From: Mycobacteriales bacterium
GTDB taxonomy: Bacteria > Actinomycetota > Actinomycetes > BP-191
Direction: 5' to 3'
Length of the DNA stretch: 41,932 nucleotides
NCBI GenBank assembly: GCA_046262915.1
Contig: JBHELW010000319.1
Location: 1 to 41,932, forward strand
The notes beneath the pieces were generated by a model. The model was not told the DNA's origin and did not search any database. It was given only the letters and a program-made list of their open reading frames with translations. The position numbers and the translations under genes are program-made. This document shows positions 3,882 through 40,164 of the stretch, in pieces. How positions within the stretch are numbered: position 1 is the stretch's first letter; every line of letters starts with the position of its first letter.

Positions 3882-4537
3882 TGGCCCAGCTCGAGCTCTT
3901 ACTGCCGCGGCCGCCTGCGCTGGTCGCCGCGCTCTACGTGGAGGCAGGCGGCCCCTACTTCCGCATGCGGGGCGTCGACCCGTGGGACGTCGAGCGCGAC
4001 GCGCGGACCTACGCGGGGCCGCTGCCGATCGTCGCGCACCCGCCGTGCGGTCCGTGGGGTTGCCTCGCGCACCTCTACCAGGGCGCCGAGCACGACTGCG
4101 CGCCGGCAGCGATCGCGGCGGCCAGGGAATGGGGGGGGGTGGTCGAGCATCCCGAGCGCTCGCGGCTGTGGCGCGCTCTCGATCTCCCCGAGCCCGACGA
4201 GCCCGCTGACCTGTTCGGCGGATTCACGGTCGCCGTCGAGCAGTGCGCGTGGGGTCATCTCGCGCGCAAGCGCTCGTGGCTCTATGTCGTCGGCGTCCCG
4301 AGGAGCGTCGTGCTGAGCGGCGTCAGAACCGGCGGCACGCCGACGCACTGGATCTCCGGATTCCGCTCCTCGACCTCGCGCAATCCGAAGCACTACCAGC
4401 AGAACGGCAGCGCCGTCCCGCCCGGCATCAAGGTCTGCAGCGCGCAGCAGCGCCGCCGCACCCCGCCGGCGTTCGCAGCGTGGTTGGTCGAGCTCGCCGC
4501 GAGCGCGCGGCGACCGGCCGTGAGCAGGGCCGCCTGA
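3881..4537 (+). CDS. Compact cytosine-C5-methyltransferase-like protein (divergent)
   Basis: ATGA overlap with the upstream gene. Motif-like blocks appear in C5-MTase order: YVEAGG (I), AHPPCGPWG (IV), VVEHPERS (VI), CAWGHLARKRSWLY (VIII), NGSAVPPG (X). Only 218 aa. Confidence 0.45.
   Translation: MAQLELLLPRPPALVAALYVEAGGPYFRMRGVDPWDVERDARTYAGPLPIVAHPPCGPWGCLAHLYQGAEHDCAPAAIAAAREWGGVVEHPERSRLWRALDLPEPDEPADLFGGFTVAVEQCAWGHLARKRSWLYVVGVPRSVVLSGVRTGGTPTHWISGFRSSTSRNPKHYQQNGSAVPPGIKVCSAQQRRRTPPAFAAWLVELAASARRPAVSRAA
4131..4139 (+). repeat. G9 homopolymer, in frame (encodes W-G-G-V)
   Basis: Counted directly. This is the third 9-nt G/C run within 1 kb. Confidence 0.9.
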
Positions 4538-5670
4538 TGGACTGGAGCAACGAGCGGTTCGTGCGCCTGTACACCCGCGACACGCCCGAGTGGCTGTGCT
4601 GGTCATGGCAGGCGCGCGCGCTGTGGCCGCACCTGATCCGGAAGGCCGACCGCAGCGGCGTGATCGCCAACAAGCTCGGCGCGCGCGGCCTGGCGGCGCT
4701 GGTCGGGCTGCCGGTGGATCTGGTGGAGGCCGCCCTTCCCGACCTGGTCGCGGACGGCTGCCTCCAGGACCACCAGCTCGGCTACGTGATCCCGAACTAC
4801 ATCGAGGCCCAGGAGACCCCGCAGTCCGACAAACAGCGGCAGCGCGAAAGTAGGGAGCGTCGCAGGGTCGTCACAAATCGTGACAGCGAGTCACGAATCG
4901 TGACCGAACGTCACGCGGTGTCACGCGATGTCACTCCGATCCGATCCGATCCGATCCGATCCGAAGATCTCCCTCCCGCGCGCGATCCAGCGGTACCGGC
5001 CCTGGCACCTGCGCCGGCCCAGCCCCTACTCCCCGGCCCGCTCGTCACGACCCCCGCGGAGATCGCGAGGGCTCAGCCGGCCTCGCGCGAGGTCGGAAAA
5101 CCGGCAACCACCGGCGAGCCGACCCTCGACCAGCTCTGGTCCGAGCTCGAGCAGGCCCGCCAGCGCGCTGCGGTCGCCCGCGGGGTCGCGATCCGCCCGC
5201 TCGTCGCGCACGATCGCGGCCGACGCGACCTCGCGGAGGCGCTCGTCGAGGCCGCTCGCGTCGGCGAGCGCGCCAAGCTGGTGGCCGACGTGCGGCACGC
5301 CATCGCGGCCGCGGAGGCCGAGTCACGCGTCGCGCCCGAGCCCGGCAAGCCCGATCGGCTCCAGTGGTTCACGGGCGCCGTGTTCAGCCCGGACAACTTC
5401 CGGCGCCTCGCTGGCACGCCGTTGGCGAAGCGATCGGCGGACGCAGGGGCGAAGCGTCGTCGGGAAGTCGCGACGCAACCGGCCTCCGCCGATCGCAAGC
5501 GGACCGCTGCCGAGCTCGCCGAGCTGAGCGCGATGGCGAACCACGTCGCGGCGCTCCCCACAGCCGAGCTCGTGAAGCGATTTGGCTCGCCCGACGGAGC
5601 GCGAGCGCCGCCGGCGAGTGCTGCACCCACCGATCCCGACGACGAACCCCGACGAAAGGCAGCAACGTGA
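4537..5670 (+). CDS. Replication initiator/organizer-like protein
   Basis: TGATG junction. The N-terminal about 100 aa (ERFVRLYTRDTPEWLCWSWQARALWPHLIRKADRSGVI) resemble phage replisome-organizer winged-helix N-termini. An iteron array lies in the linker coding region. Confidence 0.5.
   Translation: MDWSNERFVRLYTRDTPEWLCWSWQARALWPHLIRKADRSGVIANKLGARGLAALVGLPVDLVEAALPDLVADGCLQDHQLGYVIPNYIEAQETPQSDKQRQRESRERRRVVTNRDSESRIVTERHAVSRDVTPIRSDPIRSEDLPPARDPAVPALAPAPAQPLLPGPLVTTPAEIARAQPASREVGKPATTGEPTLDQLWSELEQARQRAAVARGVAIRPLVAHDRGRRDLAEALVEAARVGERAKLVADVRHAIAAAEAESRVAPEPGKPDRLQWFTGAVFSPDNFRRLAGTPLAKRSADAGAKRRREVATQPASADRKRTAAELAELSAMANHVAALPTAELVKRFGSPDGARAPPASAAPTDPDDEPRRKAAT
4870..4964 (+). repeat. 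Candidate origin: seven GTSAC pentamers at exact 10-bp spacing followed by (TCCGA)6
   Basis: GTCAC/GTGAC at 4870, 4880, 4890, 4900, 4910, 4920 and 4930. The first four form two GTCAC-N5-GTGAC palindromes. TCCGA x6 at 4935-4964. Confidence 0.55.
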
Positions 5671-7407: not shown

Positions 7408-7646
7408 AGCTGGACCTCGACGAGATCGAGCGCGAGCACCGTGAACAGGCCGACGAGGGGCACAGCTACTACCCGCACTGCGGCCCGGAGGTCGTGCTCG
7501 CCCTGGTCGCAATCGCGCGCGCCGCCGAGCGGTTCGTCGACCAGCAGGGCAAGCGTGTGCTCGACCGCGAGCTCATGGGCACGGCCGACTTCGAGGGCGA
7601 CCTGTTCGTCGAGCTGGTCAAGGCGCTCGAGGCGGCCGGCCGATGA
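7404..7646 (+). CDS. Hypothetical protein (80 aa)
   Basis: GTGA overlap start inside ORF 7362..7646. Confidence 0.55.
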   Translation: MKLDLDEIEREHREQADEGHSYYPHCGPEVVLALVAIARAAERFVDQQGKRVLDRELMGTADFEGDLFVELVKALEAAGR

Positions 7647-8557
7647 AGCCCGTCCCCGCCATCGTCGAGCCGGCGCAGGTCGACGTCGACGCCGCGGCCG
7701 AGCACATCATCGTGTCGCTCGCCGGCGAGAAAGACGCCGACCGCACCGCCGTTCGTCACGAGGGACTCGCCGCCGCAGCGCGCGAGACCGCGAAGCTCCG
7801 TCGCCTCGAGGTCGGCCGCTGGCTGAACAAGGTCCGCCCGACGTGGCCTGCGAGCGGCCCGAAGGCGCGCGGGTGGAGCGAGTTCCTCGCGCGCGTCGGT
7901 CTCGACGACTCGACCGCGGTGCGGTACATGGACGCGGCCCGGACCAGCACGGTCCACGGCGAGCCGCCCCGGCCGAGTTCTCCACAGGATCCGGCTCACG
8001 GCCGCCAGGTGAGCCAGATCTCGGGTGAGGCGCCGCCGGGCGACGTCGCGCCGGTGCTCTCGCTGGTGCCGAGCCCGGACGCCGAGGTCGAGATCGACCG
8101 CGACACGTGGTGCACCCCGCCGTGGCTCACCGAGCCGCTCGGACGATTCGACCTGGATCCGTGCAGCAACGAGCGCTCGCAGGTGCAGGCCGCGACGACG
8201 TTCGTGCTCGACCTCGGCATCGACGGGCTGGCTCGCGGCGAGGACGTCAACCCGGGCTGGCGCGTGTTCATCAACCCGCCCTACAGCGACGTGCCGCCCT
8301 GGATCGCCGCGTACAAGCACACGCGGTTCTGCTTCCTGCTCAAGCTCGACACCAGCACGAAGTGGTTCGCCGAGCTCCACGCGGCGAGCGCGCTGATCCT
8401 GATCCCTCGCCGCCGCGTGAACTTCATCCCGCCGCCGGGCGTGCCGCCCGAGCGAGCGGTCGCCCAGCAGTTCCCGCATGCGCTGTTCTACGCCAACGCC
8501 GAGGACGCGACCGACGCGATCCGCGCGATGTGCTGGAGCTGGCGCGTCGACCACTGA
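7643..8557 (+). CDS. Phage Dam-type DNA N6-adenine methyltransferase with N-terminal DNA-binding-like domain
   Basis: WCTPPW, FDLDPCSN and VFINPPYSDVPPW blocks are typical of the phage Dam family. ATGA overlap start. Confidence 0.8.
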   Translation: MKPVPAIVEPAQVDVDAAAEHIIVSLAGEKDADRTAVRHEGLAAAARETAKLRRLEVGRWLNKVRPTWPASGPKARGWSEFLARVGLDDSTAVRYMDAARTSTVHGEPPRPSSPQDPAHGRQVSQISGEAPPGDVAPVLSLVPSPDAEVEIDRDTWCTPPWLTEPLGRFDLDPCSNERSQVQAATTFVLDLGIDGLARGEDVNPGWRVFINPPYSDVPPWIAAYKHTRFCFLLKLDTSTKWFAELHAASALILIPRRRVNFIPPPGVPPERAVAQQFPHALFYANAEDATDAIRAMCWSWRVDH

Positions 8558-9988: not shown

Positions 9989-10350
9989 TCAACACCGACT
10001 TCGACCCGGTGTACGGCTGCGAGCTGGCGATCGGCCGGCGCGACAAGGACGGCTACGTGTTCGCGGGCGAGCGGCGCGCGCACCTCGTCGCCTGGGATCG
10101 AGCGCACGGCCCCGTAGCCGACGGGTTCGAGCTCGACCACACCTGCCGGCGTCGCGCGTGCTGCTCGCTCGACCACCTCGAGCTCGTCACCCGCCGCGAG
10201 AACGAGCTGCGCAAGCGCTGGTCACATCGCACGCGGATCGCCAGCTGTCCGCGCGGTCACCGGCTGAGCGAGACGGCGATCGTCACGCCCGAAGGCGGGA
10301 GGGTCTGTAGAACGTGCCGCGACCTCGCAGTGCAGGAGCAGCAGCTGTGA
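9985..10350 (+). CDS. HNH endonuclease
   Basis: ELDHTCRRRACCSLDHLELVTRRENELRK, plus CPRGH...CRTC. Confidence 0.8.
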   Translation: MINTDFDPVYGCELAIGRRDKDGYVFAGERRAHLVAWDRAHGPVADGFELDHTCRRRACCSLDHLELVTRRENELRKRWSHRTRIASCPRGHRLSETAIVTPEGGRVCRTCRDLAVQEQQL

Positions 10351-12171: not shown

Positions 12172-12475
12172 CCGCGATCGCCCGCGCGCCGCCGCGCCCC
12201 TCCTCGAGCCCATCCGGGTGCGCGAGCTGTGGTTCTTCATGCCCGGCGGCCCGCCTCTGCCGATGTCGAACAGCGGCGGCGGCCGCGGCAAGATCGCGGC
12301 GCGCGAGAAAGAGGGCACGCGGATCACGATCCAGTTCGAGCCCTGGCTGCGGCACCATCGCGTGCGTGAGGTCGTCCACGGCAAGCTGAAGGTCGAGTTC
12401 TGCATCCCCGAGTCGGCGGTCGTCTACGTTCCCGAGGACCAGCCGGCCGAGCCGGAACCGGAGCGCAAGGCGTGA
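12158..12475 (+). CDS. Hypothetical protein
   Basis: ATG 12158 inside ORF 11978..12475. Confidence 0.5.
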   Translation: MSNDNRDRPRAAAPLLEPIRVRELWFFMPGGPPLPMSNSGGGRGKIAAREKEGTRITIQFEPWLRHHRVREVVHGKLKVEFCIPESAVVYVPEDQPAEPEPERKA

Positions 12476-12990
12476 TCCGGCTCGCCACCATCGTGAGCAC
12501 CGCAGATGCCGGCGCGGCGCGCGGCGCGCTCGAGGGCGCCATCGAGCTCGAGCTCGGCGCCGGCGGCTGGACGGCAGCCGAGGACCTGCCCGCGATCTTC
12601 GCCGAGCGCACGAAGCGCACGGTCTCGCCGCGGATGGCCGCCCGGCTGAACGTCCAGGACAGCGACGGCACCCTGATCGTGTCCTTCCGGTCCGATCTCG
12701 CGCCCGGCACCCCGGTGGCGTACGTGGACCAGGCCATCGAGCAGCAGCGCAAGCCGGCGCTGCACGTCGTGCTGCCCGCCGGCGAGCGATCGCGGGTCAC
12801 AGAGGACCTGCGCAAGGGCGTCGTGGCCTGGCTCGCGGAAGAGAAGATCAACACGCTGCACGTCACCGGGCCGCGCGAGGTCGACGAGCCGGGCATCCAG
12901 CAGGCCACGCGGGACGCGCTGGTGTGGCTGCTCGAGGACGAGCTCGCGCCGGCGATCGGCGCCGCGCCGCAGCCCGCTGCCGGGGGCTGA
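12472..12990 (+). CDS. YpsA-like SLOG-family protein (putative molybdenum-carrier family) with degenerate GGQTG motif
   Basis: NVQDSDGTLIV, QRKPALHV, and VAWLAEEKINTLHVTGPREVDEPGI match the family blocks. The N-terminal IVSTADAGAARGALEGAIELELGAGGW aligns to ISGGQTGADRAAL..GGW. Confidence 0.65.
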   Translation: MIRLATIVSTADAGAARGALEGAIELELGAGGWTAAEDLPAIFAERTKRTVSPRMAARLNVQDSDGTLIVSFRSDLAPGTPVAYVDQAIEQQRKPALHVVLPAGERSRVTEDLRKGVVAWLAEEKINTLHVTGPREVDEPGIQQATRDALVWLLEDELAPAIGAAPQPAAGG

Positions 12991-37991: not shown

Positions 37992-38847
<856 letters not shown>

Positions 38848-38851
<4 letters not shown>

Positions 38852-39036
38852 CGGTGCGCCTCCTTGTAGAACAGCGTGATCGTCAGGCAGTGGAACTCGC
38901 TGTCGCTGGACTGCGTGACCACCTTGTCGACGACCTCGACGGGGTTCGCGCGCAGCCAGGCGGTGATCTGGTCGCCCATCTGACGACGGTCCAAATGCTT
39001 CGTCTCCGAGAACACCTTGACTCCAGTGAATTGCAT
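38848..39036 (-). CDS. Small conserved-looking protein (62 aa)
   Basis: ATG 39036 preceded by AAGGGTGGA. MQFTGVKVFSETKHLDRRQMGDQITAWL...SSDSEFHCLTITLFY. ATGA overlap with the next gene. Confidence 0.6.
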
Positions 39037-39060
39037 GTTGTCCACCCTTGTTGTTGTCCC

Positions 39061-39162
39061 TGGTCCCTCGGGCCGGACTCGAACCGGCGTTTCCGTACTA
39101 TGAATTGCGACCACATTCCTGGAGGGGCCGCACGGTGTGTCTGCCATCCACACTGCCGAGGG
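39061..39162 (-). ncRNA. tRNA-shaped gene (102 nt) with an expanded anticodon region and encoded CCA
   Basis: CCCTCGG/CCGAGGG acceptor (7 bp). D arm GTGT-GGATGGCAG-ACAC. CCGTG...TACGG closes 33 nt. T arm GCCGG-TTCGAGT-CCGGC. Discriminator A, then CCA. Confidence 0.6.
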
Positions 39163-39270
39163 AGACACCGACGCTGATTCGTCGGTGCTGGCGTCGACGG
39201 GTCTCCCCGTCCCGGAGCCGCCCGGTTGCCGCGCGTTGAGCGTTGGAGACATCCTCCGCGCGGCAAAGCG

Positions 39271-40164
39271 TCAGTCGCGACTGCCCTCCTTCCCGGCATC
39301 CTCGACCCATTCCGGATCCGCGATCGCCGGCCCGAGGTCGTGCAGGATCTCGAGCGGCTCGATGCCGGTCGAGTACCCGCCCCACAGGTTCGTGGCCTCG
39401 TAGATCTGCAGCCGCTCCAGCCATGCGAGCCGCAGCTTGTCGCCCTGCTCCAGCGTCGTCGGCGTGAGCTCGTAGACCTGGACCACGTACGGCGGCACGT
39501 TCTCGACCGCCACGATGTACACCTCGCGCGGCGCCCGGCCGCCGTTCTCGTGCTTGATCGCCGCGCGCTGGTCGGCGAGCTGCGCGTGGTAGCCCATGTT
39601 CGCGGCGTCGCGCACGAACCGCCACGGCGCGGCACACCTGGTGGTCTTGAGCTCGACTAGGTGGTCGGCGCGGCGCGCGTCGGGCGTCGACTGCCGGGCC
39701 CGGCCGAGCTCGGACCAGACGATGGAGCGCTCGTACACCATGCCGGGCCCGAACAGCAGGCGTGCGGCGACCGGATGGCCGTGTAGCGCGTCGCGGATCC
39801 GCTGCGCGTGGTCGTGCTCGGCGATGGTCAGCATCGCCTTGCCGGCGTGCTTGACCTGGAACTCCTTCCACACGTCGCCCGAGCGCGGGGCGATCTTCTT
39901 CGGGTTCTTCTTCGCCGGCTGGTTCCAGACAGCGATCGGCTTGTCGAAGGTGACCGCGTGCGCGCCCGTGCCGAGCCGGCGCGCCAGCGTGTCGGCGCCG
40001 TCGCCCTGGAACGCGTGGAGGCAGAGCGCGCCGCACGCGCCGGCCGCCTTCAGGTGGTGAAAGCGCGCCGGCAGCGTGCGCGGGTCGACCACCTTGCGGC
40101 GCGGGGCGTCGAGGTCGGGCTCCTCGTCATCGAAGGGCGAGGTGTCGTCGGCGTCCAGCATCAT
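39271..40164 (-). CDS. PD-(D/E)xK exonuclease (RecE/exonuclease VIII-like)
   Basis: STPDARRADHLVELKTTR (D...ELK) and GYHAQLADQ. ATGA-coupled start at 40164. Confidence 0.6.
   Translation of the reverse strand: MMLDADDTSPFDDEEPDLDAPRRKVVDPRTLPARFHHLKAAGACGALCLHAFQGDGADTLARRLGTGAHAVTFDKPIAVWNQPAKKNPKKIAPRSGDVWKEFQVKHAGKAMLTIAEHDHAQRIRDALHGHPVAARLLFGPGMVYERSIVWSELGRARQSTPDARRADHLVELKTTRCAAPWRFVRDAANMGYHAQLADQRAAIKHENGGRAPREVYIVAVENVPPYVVQVYELTPTTLEQGDKLRLAWLERLQIYEATNLWGGYSTGIEPLEILHDLGPAIADPEWVEDAGKEGSRD

Follow-up and report, generated by a model that had tools for sequence, protein, structure and literature searches.

The DNA under study is a window of 41,932 nucleotides (nt), the whole of contig JBHELW010000319.1 in a fragmented 2.37-Mb metagenome-assembled genome, with a GC content of about 70%. 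The window is a temperate phage and carries on its forward strand an initiator-like (replisome-organiser-like) gene at 4537..5670, which codes for a protein of 377 amino acids (aa), here called P0001. Our data indicate that the segment 4870-4988 is most likely the replication origin of the phage, lying inside the gene of its own initiator, and we put the probability of this reading at roughly three in four. An initial annotation, made from the letters of the window, had proposed a candidate origin at this place, and all the computational tests able to refute it came out in its favour. Origins inside initiator genes are textbook knowledge for phages lambda, P22 and SPP1. The type of arrangement is known in this sense, and the layout described here is most likely a variant of it, with phased short cores and a pentamer tract that is not AT-rich, in an uncharacterised phage family.

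The segment begins, at nt 334 of the gene, with seven pentamers spaced by exactly 10 bp. Direct reading of the sequence gave GTCAC at 4870, 4890, 4910, 4920 and 4930 and GTGAC at 4880 and 4900, exactly the starts that had been annotated. The first four sites form two convergent iteron pairs with no strand assigned, GTCAC-aaatc-GTGAC at 4870-4884 and GTCAC-gaatc-GTGAC at 4890-4904. These had been described as palindromes; their arms are inverted over 5 bp (6 bp in the second pair, GTCACG/CGTGAC), but their centres are not symmetric. The remaining three sites (4910..4934, starting at 4910, 4920 and 4930, forward strand) are direct GTCAC iterons pointing to the pentamer tract. They had been called direct repeats of GTCACGCG, which is right for the three copies of GTCAC, but the larger unit is common to two of them only and the third abuts TCCGA. 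The tract itself is a perfect (TCCGA)6 at 4935..4964 on the forward strand, as had been claimed (period 5, 6.0 copies and 100% matches in Tandem Repeats Finder). It is in phase with the last iteron and is presumed to be the unwinding or loading region. The right edge of the module is formed by GAAGATCTCCCTCCCGCGCGCGATCC at 4963..4988, again with no strand assigned, in which a GATC is combined with a C-rich run and with the GC palindrome CGCGCGCG (4977-4984). Near-identical motifs are present in three homologous loci (L002, L046 and L069), and the window reads the motif in another frame.

Such an array is unique in the window. GTSAC pentamers (S being G or C) occur 81 times in the 41.9 kb, and the only exact 10-bp chain of at least two of them is the chain of seven; in 300 shuffles of the window the longest chain was 2. 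Mismatch-free GTSAC-N5-GTSAC is likewise confined to the array. No second, oriR-like array is present in the window, where a cluster at 10221 is unphased. The segment had further been called locally AT-richer, and this is so in relative terms, the GC content of 4870-4964 being 0.58 where the window as a whole has 0.705 and the remainder of the gene 0.70-0.76, but the effect is mild and the segment is not AT-rich. The least stable 30-mers of the gene fall within 4870-4964, at the 98.8th percentile of the window.

The layout is not peculiar to this phage. A word-indexed homology search with P0001 gave 93 metagenomic homologues, and an exhaustive search with its N-terminal domain yielded 2,759 clusters (50% identity), of which 2,315 have E <= 1e-10. 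Among the best 150 matches listed, the domain lies at the N-terminus or close by. Related contigs fall into bins of Myxococcota, Chloroflexota and Actinomycetota. Homologous loci (numbered L below) were fetched from viral, genome and metagenome collections, 66 in all, and 46 had sufficient sequence for the array test. At least three phased GTNAC sites were found directly past the N-domain in 44 of the 46. Exact 10-bp chains of at least three sites number 37 in the linker windows (17.2 kb) and none in 151 kb of flanks of the same loci. The order of the sites is kept as well: one to three convergent pairs with the consensus GTCAC-R-A-A-W-C-GTGAC are followed by three to eight direct GTCAC at 10 bp, and '><><>>>' is the canonical form, found in the window and in most homologues. 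The base after the core is a purine in 99% of 123 direct units taken from homologues.

A tract of 30-45 bp with a 5-bp period abuts the last GTCAC, in phase in nearly all loci. In controls the self-match is 0.26 ± 0.08; in the tracts of the family it rises to 0.58 for period 5 and 0.50 for period 10. Units follow the consensus [G/T]CC[G/T][A/T] and are most often GCCTA, TCCGA, GCTGT or GCCGT; in minority lineages they are of the GANNA type (GAGGA, GAATA and GACGA, for example). A comparison of repeat number in relatives, as the initial annotation had suggested, showed that the array layout recurs and that the copy number of the tract differs. Most tracts have a GC content of 0.47-0.70, with a single AT-rich outlier at 0.23, in loci of 0.45-0.72; several low-GC relatives have a tract richer in GC than the locus around it. 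This relation of tract GC to locus GC argues against a purely thermodynamic weak spot. In most loci the tract is followed by a small palindrome rich in GC or by a C-run/G-run motif.

The iterons and the pentamer tract code for residues 112-143 of P0001, that is, the end of a basic helix and the start of a linker, with the iterons (4870-4934) accounting for 112-133; the translation of 4537-5670 bears out both the 377-aa product and the peptide VVTNRDSESRIVTERHAVSRDVTPIRSDPIRS of the earlier description. It had been argued that the repeats would be a coding accident if homologous genes kept the peptide and lost the repeats. The reverse was found, as the phased sites are present in the 44 of 46 loci and the peptide is variable. 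The sites use all three reading frames across the family, in the ratio 118:93:80, and for the last iteron the frame is 0 in 22 loci, 1 in 14 and 2 in 8. Depending on the frame, a site is read as VT, as [R/G/S/C][H/D] or as x-S-[Q/R/H/L/P], and the flanking residues are exactly those that the codons nGT, nnG and Cnn permit. GC content at third codon positions is 0.81 in the N-domain but only 0.61 in the array. Between the window and locus L013, whose N-domains are 95% identical, there are five differences in the array, all in spacers and none in a core. Judged by these comparisons, conservation acts on the DNA and not on the peptide.

Stop codons provide a further test of the same point. Four lineages have GTAAC or GTTAC cores, and in these GTAAC is restricted to frames 0 and 1. 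In frame 2, where GTAAC would give a TAA stop, it is always replaced, by GTTAC in L014, by GTCAC in L036 and L063 and by GAAAC in L049. L049 also has a duplicated stretch (2232-2300 and 2420-2460), which gives it two arrays in the gene (offsets 363-423 and 552-582), both with the identical frame-dependent pattern GTAAC, GTAAC, GAAAC.

The change of core can be compared with the protein. Well-supported branches of the N-domain tree force four changes, so that the GTAAC lineages have four independent origins, and among the 44 DNA-verified loci Asn is found at basic-helix position 98 in all four of them. In GTCAC lineages Asp is kept at this position in about 35 of 39 and Asn is found in one. A strict Asp98/Asn98 code was considered and rejected, as the relation proved only permissive in a larger set in which the core type was guessed from the peptide. 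Asn98 would then be permissive and not determining, and the covariation of protein and site is suggestive evidence of their contact; it points to a specificity swap in which Asp or Asn at position 98 goes with C or A in the core.

The predicted fold of P0001 is in line with a part in replication. An AlphaFold2 model built on 73 homologues has a predicted local distance difference test score above 90 over winged-helix residues 20-90. The stretch 4537..4884 of the forward strand codes for the winged-helix N-domain (residues about 15-95) and for a basic helix (SDKQRQRESRERRR..., 98-116), which together make up the presumed iteron-binding module. Residues 117-196 form a low-confidence, disordered linker. 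The model and the comparison of homologues place a helical C-domain, presumed to recruit a partner, at residues 197-350 (5125..5586, forward strand). With these domain limits the array does lie, as had been noted, in DNA for the linker between the N-terminal winged-helix part and the C-terminal part. Every top match of a Foldseek search of the PDB is a winged-helix DNA binder, at weak E-values (near 0.1). Among viral structures (BFVD library) the best fold neighbours (E 5e-5 to 1e-1) are replication-named: 'Replication initiation and membrane attachment', 'Replisome organizer', 'Replication initiator protein', 'Primosomal protein 1', 'Phage replisome organiser N-terminal domain' and 'lambda Replication protein O N-terminal domain'.

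The domain relations of the family agree with these names. P0001 does not match PF09681 (Phage_rep_org_N)/TIGR01714, and two distant homologues of its N-domain, P0082 and P0086 (E 5e-23 and 4e-21), do so with 26.4 and 25.0 bits at a cut-off of 23.3; in all, 3 of 73 N-domain family members match PF09681. PF09524 (Phg_2220_C), the C-domain of the SPP1 initiator G38P, is absent from P0001 and is carried by 5 of the 73 relatives that share its N-domain (the G38P control gave E 2e-20). Other variety in the C-terminal part includes weak DnaT-domain matches in five members and a T5orf172/MUG113 insertion in four. On the strength of these architectures, C-domains are shuffled among members of the N-domain family. 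In P0013, P0017 and P0037 the T5orf172/MUG113 (GIY-YIG-like) insert stands exactly between the N-domain (...RRR) and the array (L003:3001-4450, L027:1358-2058 and L061:3001-4280). L027 and L061 have array and tract past the insert; in L003 the tract (ACCGT x3) and the C-run motif are kept and the iterons look degenerate.

The exchange of parts can also be followed from the other side. The C-domain of P0001 is found behind unrelated N-domains in P0028 (L068) and P0046 (L069), and P0026 is also in the same alignment (A1). With these other N-domains the linker repeats are different, of ACCAGCC-type and GGGGACC-type in L068 and L069, and are followed by a short-period GATC-rich tract; in L069 a motif GAAGATCCCCCTCCCGCGCGCGCGATCCC nearly equal to window 4963-4988 comes past the tract. 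As proteins that share the C-domain and have other N-domains hold different linker repeats, the iterons appear to travel with the N-domain. Conversely, the DNA of window 4537-5670 and L013:1124-1720 is about 93% identical through N-domain, array, tract and GCGCGATCC; the similarity stops right past GCGCGATCC, and the two are unrelated from about position 4990 of the window. As far as such alignments can tell, there are sharp mosaic joints at the edges of the origin, and origin module and C-domain are swapped as separate cassettes.

The position of the repeats is closely similar to that in known origins. The parallel with lambda drawn in the initial annotation is exact in this respect: the repeats begin at nt 349 of lambda gene O (38686-39585), with four iterons at 39034-39118, the annotated origin of P22 begins at nt 353 of gene 18, and the array of the window begins at nt 334. 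In SPP1 gene 38 the repeats lie at nt 361-448. In lambda the origin is in the middle of O, and the O protein also binds single-stranded AT-rich DNA (PMC7466680). SPP1 oriL lies within gene 38 and is made up of AB boxes, to which G38P binds, together with an unwinding element that is AT-rich; for replication in vitro a fragment of 356 bp suffices (PMC5737612). With lambda and P22 the present gene shares an origin (a probable one here) in linker DNA past the N-terminal winged-helix origin-binding domain of an initiator gene, repeats some 330-350 nt into the gene, and the same order in the direction of transcription, namely repeats, a region to open, and then a palindrome or C/G-run motif. In the lambda sequence an AT-rich region lies past the iterons, and the P22 origin has iterons, an AT-rich stretch and then CCCCCTTACCCCCTAAAGGGGG.

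There are differences as well. P0001 has no sequence relation to Phage_rep_O (PF04492), which is absent from it, whereas the profile scores 123 bits with lambda O and 130 bits with P22 gp18, used as controls. The cores here are of 5-6 bp in strict 10-bp steps and a fixed '><><>>>' order, whereas lambda has four iterons of 18-19 bp about 20 bp apart. In place of the AT-rich region of lambda and P22 there is a 5-bp-periodic tract of about 60% GC, and no P-like or DnaB-like gene follows. With SPP1 G38P, P0001 probably has in common that a non-AAA+ initiator has its binding repeats in its own gene beside an unwinding element (PMC5737612), and that five relatives with the N-domain of P0001 bear the G38P C-domain PF09524. 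It differs from G38P in its C-domain, with no detectable sequence similarity, and SPP1 further has AB boxes and an AT-rich element, brings a loader and a helicase of its own and contains oriR as a second site, as against one array in the window. At its right end the P22 origin (L072:2960-2985) reads CCCCC-N3-5-CCCCC-AA-GGGGG, and the same motif recurs past the tract in L018, L058, L047, L009 and L035, although the present initiator family is unrelated. Motifs of this class are always in one frame, PPxxPx(K/R)G, and may be a peptide motif rather than a pure DNA element such as a hairpin.

These features suggest how a theta-type origin would work that lies where its own initiator gene codes for the linker. 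The winged-helix N-domain and the basic helix of the 377-aa protein would bind the GTCAC(R) sites, as dimers on the two convergent pairs and head to tail on the three direct sites. Since the sites are one helical turn apart, the bound proteins would stand on one face of the DNA, where they could assemble into an oligomer akin to the O-some of lambda. The strained duplex would then open at the adjoining (TCCGA)6, where the single strands would be held, with the GC-rich palindrome as the boundary of the opened region. The C-domain would finally recruit the helicase machinery of the host, which is proposed because the phage has no recognisable helicase, loader or primase.

It is possible, although we hold this tentatively and think it less probable than not, that the pentamer tract is a sequence-specific element for opening and loading, which the initiator oligomer, or a protein recruited by the C-domain, reads in steps of 5 nt. 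A specific tract is favoured here because the tract is in phase, has a unit consensus, and keeps a GC content near 0.5-0.7 in the common unit class whatever the GC of the genome. DnaA-trios and the DnaD recognition element offer a loose analogy, being short-period motifs beside double-strand initiator sites that are read single-stranded (PMC10201434). They differ in that the period here is 5 nt and not 3 nt or TnnT and that the initiator is not DnaA or DnaD.

Several results weigh against an origin at 4870-4988. The label 'initiator-like, winged-helix' holds at the level of fold and through the domain architecture of relatives, but P0001 itself matches no Pfam or NCBIfam model. Comparison of its N-domain with lambda O (probability 0.1) and with G38P by hhalign gave no relation, the profile being shallow (Neff 1.6), and a PDB profile search with the protein family gave no useful match. 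Pfam and PHROGs scans of the approximately 38 open reading frames of the window found no helicase, helicase loader, primase or partition gene, and no helicase loader gene stands beside 4537-5670, unlike lambda P or SPP1 G39P. The single strand of 4860-5000 folds no better than shuffles (z = +0.96). The tract adjoining the iterons, at 60% GC, is only mildly unstable and is not an AT-rich unwinding element. Cumulative GC skew, which had been proposed as a check, has no turning point near 4.9 kb; the curve is uninformative because its minimum near 38 kb tracks the switch of gene strand. Lastly, Asn98 occurs also with GTCAC-type linkers in the larger set with peptide-guessed cores, which weakens the Asp/Asn rule.

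The conservation of the DNA and the covariation of protein and sites indicate a binding array and leave its role aside. The array could be mainly regulatory, acting in autorepression or as a transcription roadblock in its own gene, with replication starting elsewhere or otherwise. The winged-helix neighbours in the PDB are mostly transcription regulators, and the origin signal is missing in the GC skew, both of which would suit such a role. We nevertheless consider it unlikely, since relatives join a P0001-type N-domain to a G38P C-domain, the viral fold neighbours are replisome organisers, the conserved tract and palindrome have no obvious part in autorepression, the layout copies three proven origins (lambda, P22 and SPP1), and the window is without another candidate origin array.

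A role of the array as a centromere-like partition site, or as a packaging-recognition site for a winged-helix adaptor protein, is more improbable still. Short repeats in helical phase are a typical feature of plasmid centromeres, AspA (an archaeal centromere binder) is among the weak fold matches, and pac sites inside small-terminase genes are known. But the scans of the roughly 38 reading frames found no gene of ParA, ParM, TubZ or ParB-like type, the phage encodes an integrase, the terminase lies 8 kb downstream of the gene, and the domain relations of the protein are with replication proteins. Least credible of all is that the repeats are a coding accident or slippage in a low-complexity linker peptide without function at the DNA level: the region does code for a disordered linker, and the perfect (TCCGA)6 resembles recent slippage with a copy number that differs between relatives, but the pentamers and their 10-bp phase are conserved in three frames and the peptide is not, stop-codon avoidance changes frame-2 sites only, the substitutions between close relatives are all in spacers, and comparable chains are absent from the 151 kb of flanks.

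Taken as an origin, the module at 4870-4988 has several consequences. To our knowledge, detailed work on origins in initiator genes is limited to a small number of model phages that are AT-rich or of moderate GC. The N-domain clusters make up a large uncharted initiator family in soil and sediment phages of high-GC bacteria; BLAST of the window, P0001 and the array against 50,697 GenBank phage records gave no match, and we found no published description of this family or of GTCAC iterons. A rule for finding such origins follows from the layout: look past an N-domain whose end reads ...SRERRR for GTCAC sites in the order '><><>>>' at 10 bp, and for a 5-bp-periodic tract behind them. The array is also a clean example of dual coding, with sites threaded through three frames and stop codons dodged site by site. 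The question is raised how an origin of 60-70% GC opens without an AT-rich element, and whether the pentamer tract is a specific single-strand motif. If it is, the tract would be the counterpart, for a non-AAA+ phage initiator, to DnaA-trios as well as to the DnaD recognition element, and it would explain how such origins work in genomes of 70% GC with no AT-rich region.

The neighbourhood of the gene is that of a phage genome. The window encodes an integrase, an exonuclease VIII-like protein, a tail fibre, a large terminase, a portal and an HNH endonuclease. The initiator-like gene is joined to its upstream neighbour by ATGA and to its downstream neighbour by GTGA. Directly 3' of it is a gene for a 340-aa radical-SAM-like protein; a conserved downstream partner gene was looked for and none was found, as the radical-SAM-like gene is not common to L068. 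The gene upstream of the terminase, at 12472-12990, matches the circularly permuted YpsA SLOG family (PF12694, E 8e-19).

The window also encodes a Dam-type methylase at 7643-8557. Six GATC lie between 4938 and 4969, five of them inside (TCCGA)6. It was observed that the lineages sharing the C-domain of P0001 have GATC-rich tracts: the window has 7 GATC in 50 bp (4938-4987), L068 has CCAGAT x4 at 4455-4500 and L069 has GGATCT/TGATCT repeats at 4430-4510. Each of these three phages encodes an N6-adenine methylase of the Dam (PF05869) or D12 class (window 7643-8557, L069:6919-7905 and L068:2495-3472), and control of the origin by methylation is possible in these C-domain-sharing lineages. A Dam-methylated GATC cluster as a family-wide feature of the tract was rejected, GATC being absent from most tracts. 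The window has 495 GATC in total, where its base composition would predict about 113, so that the site is not avoided by this phage.

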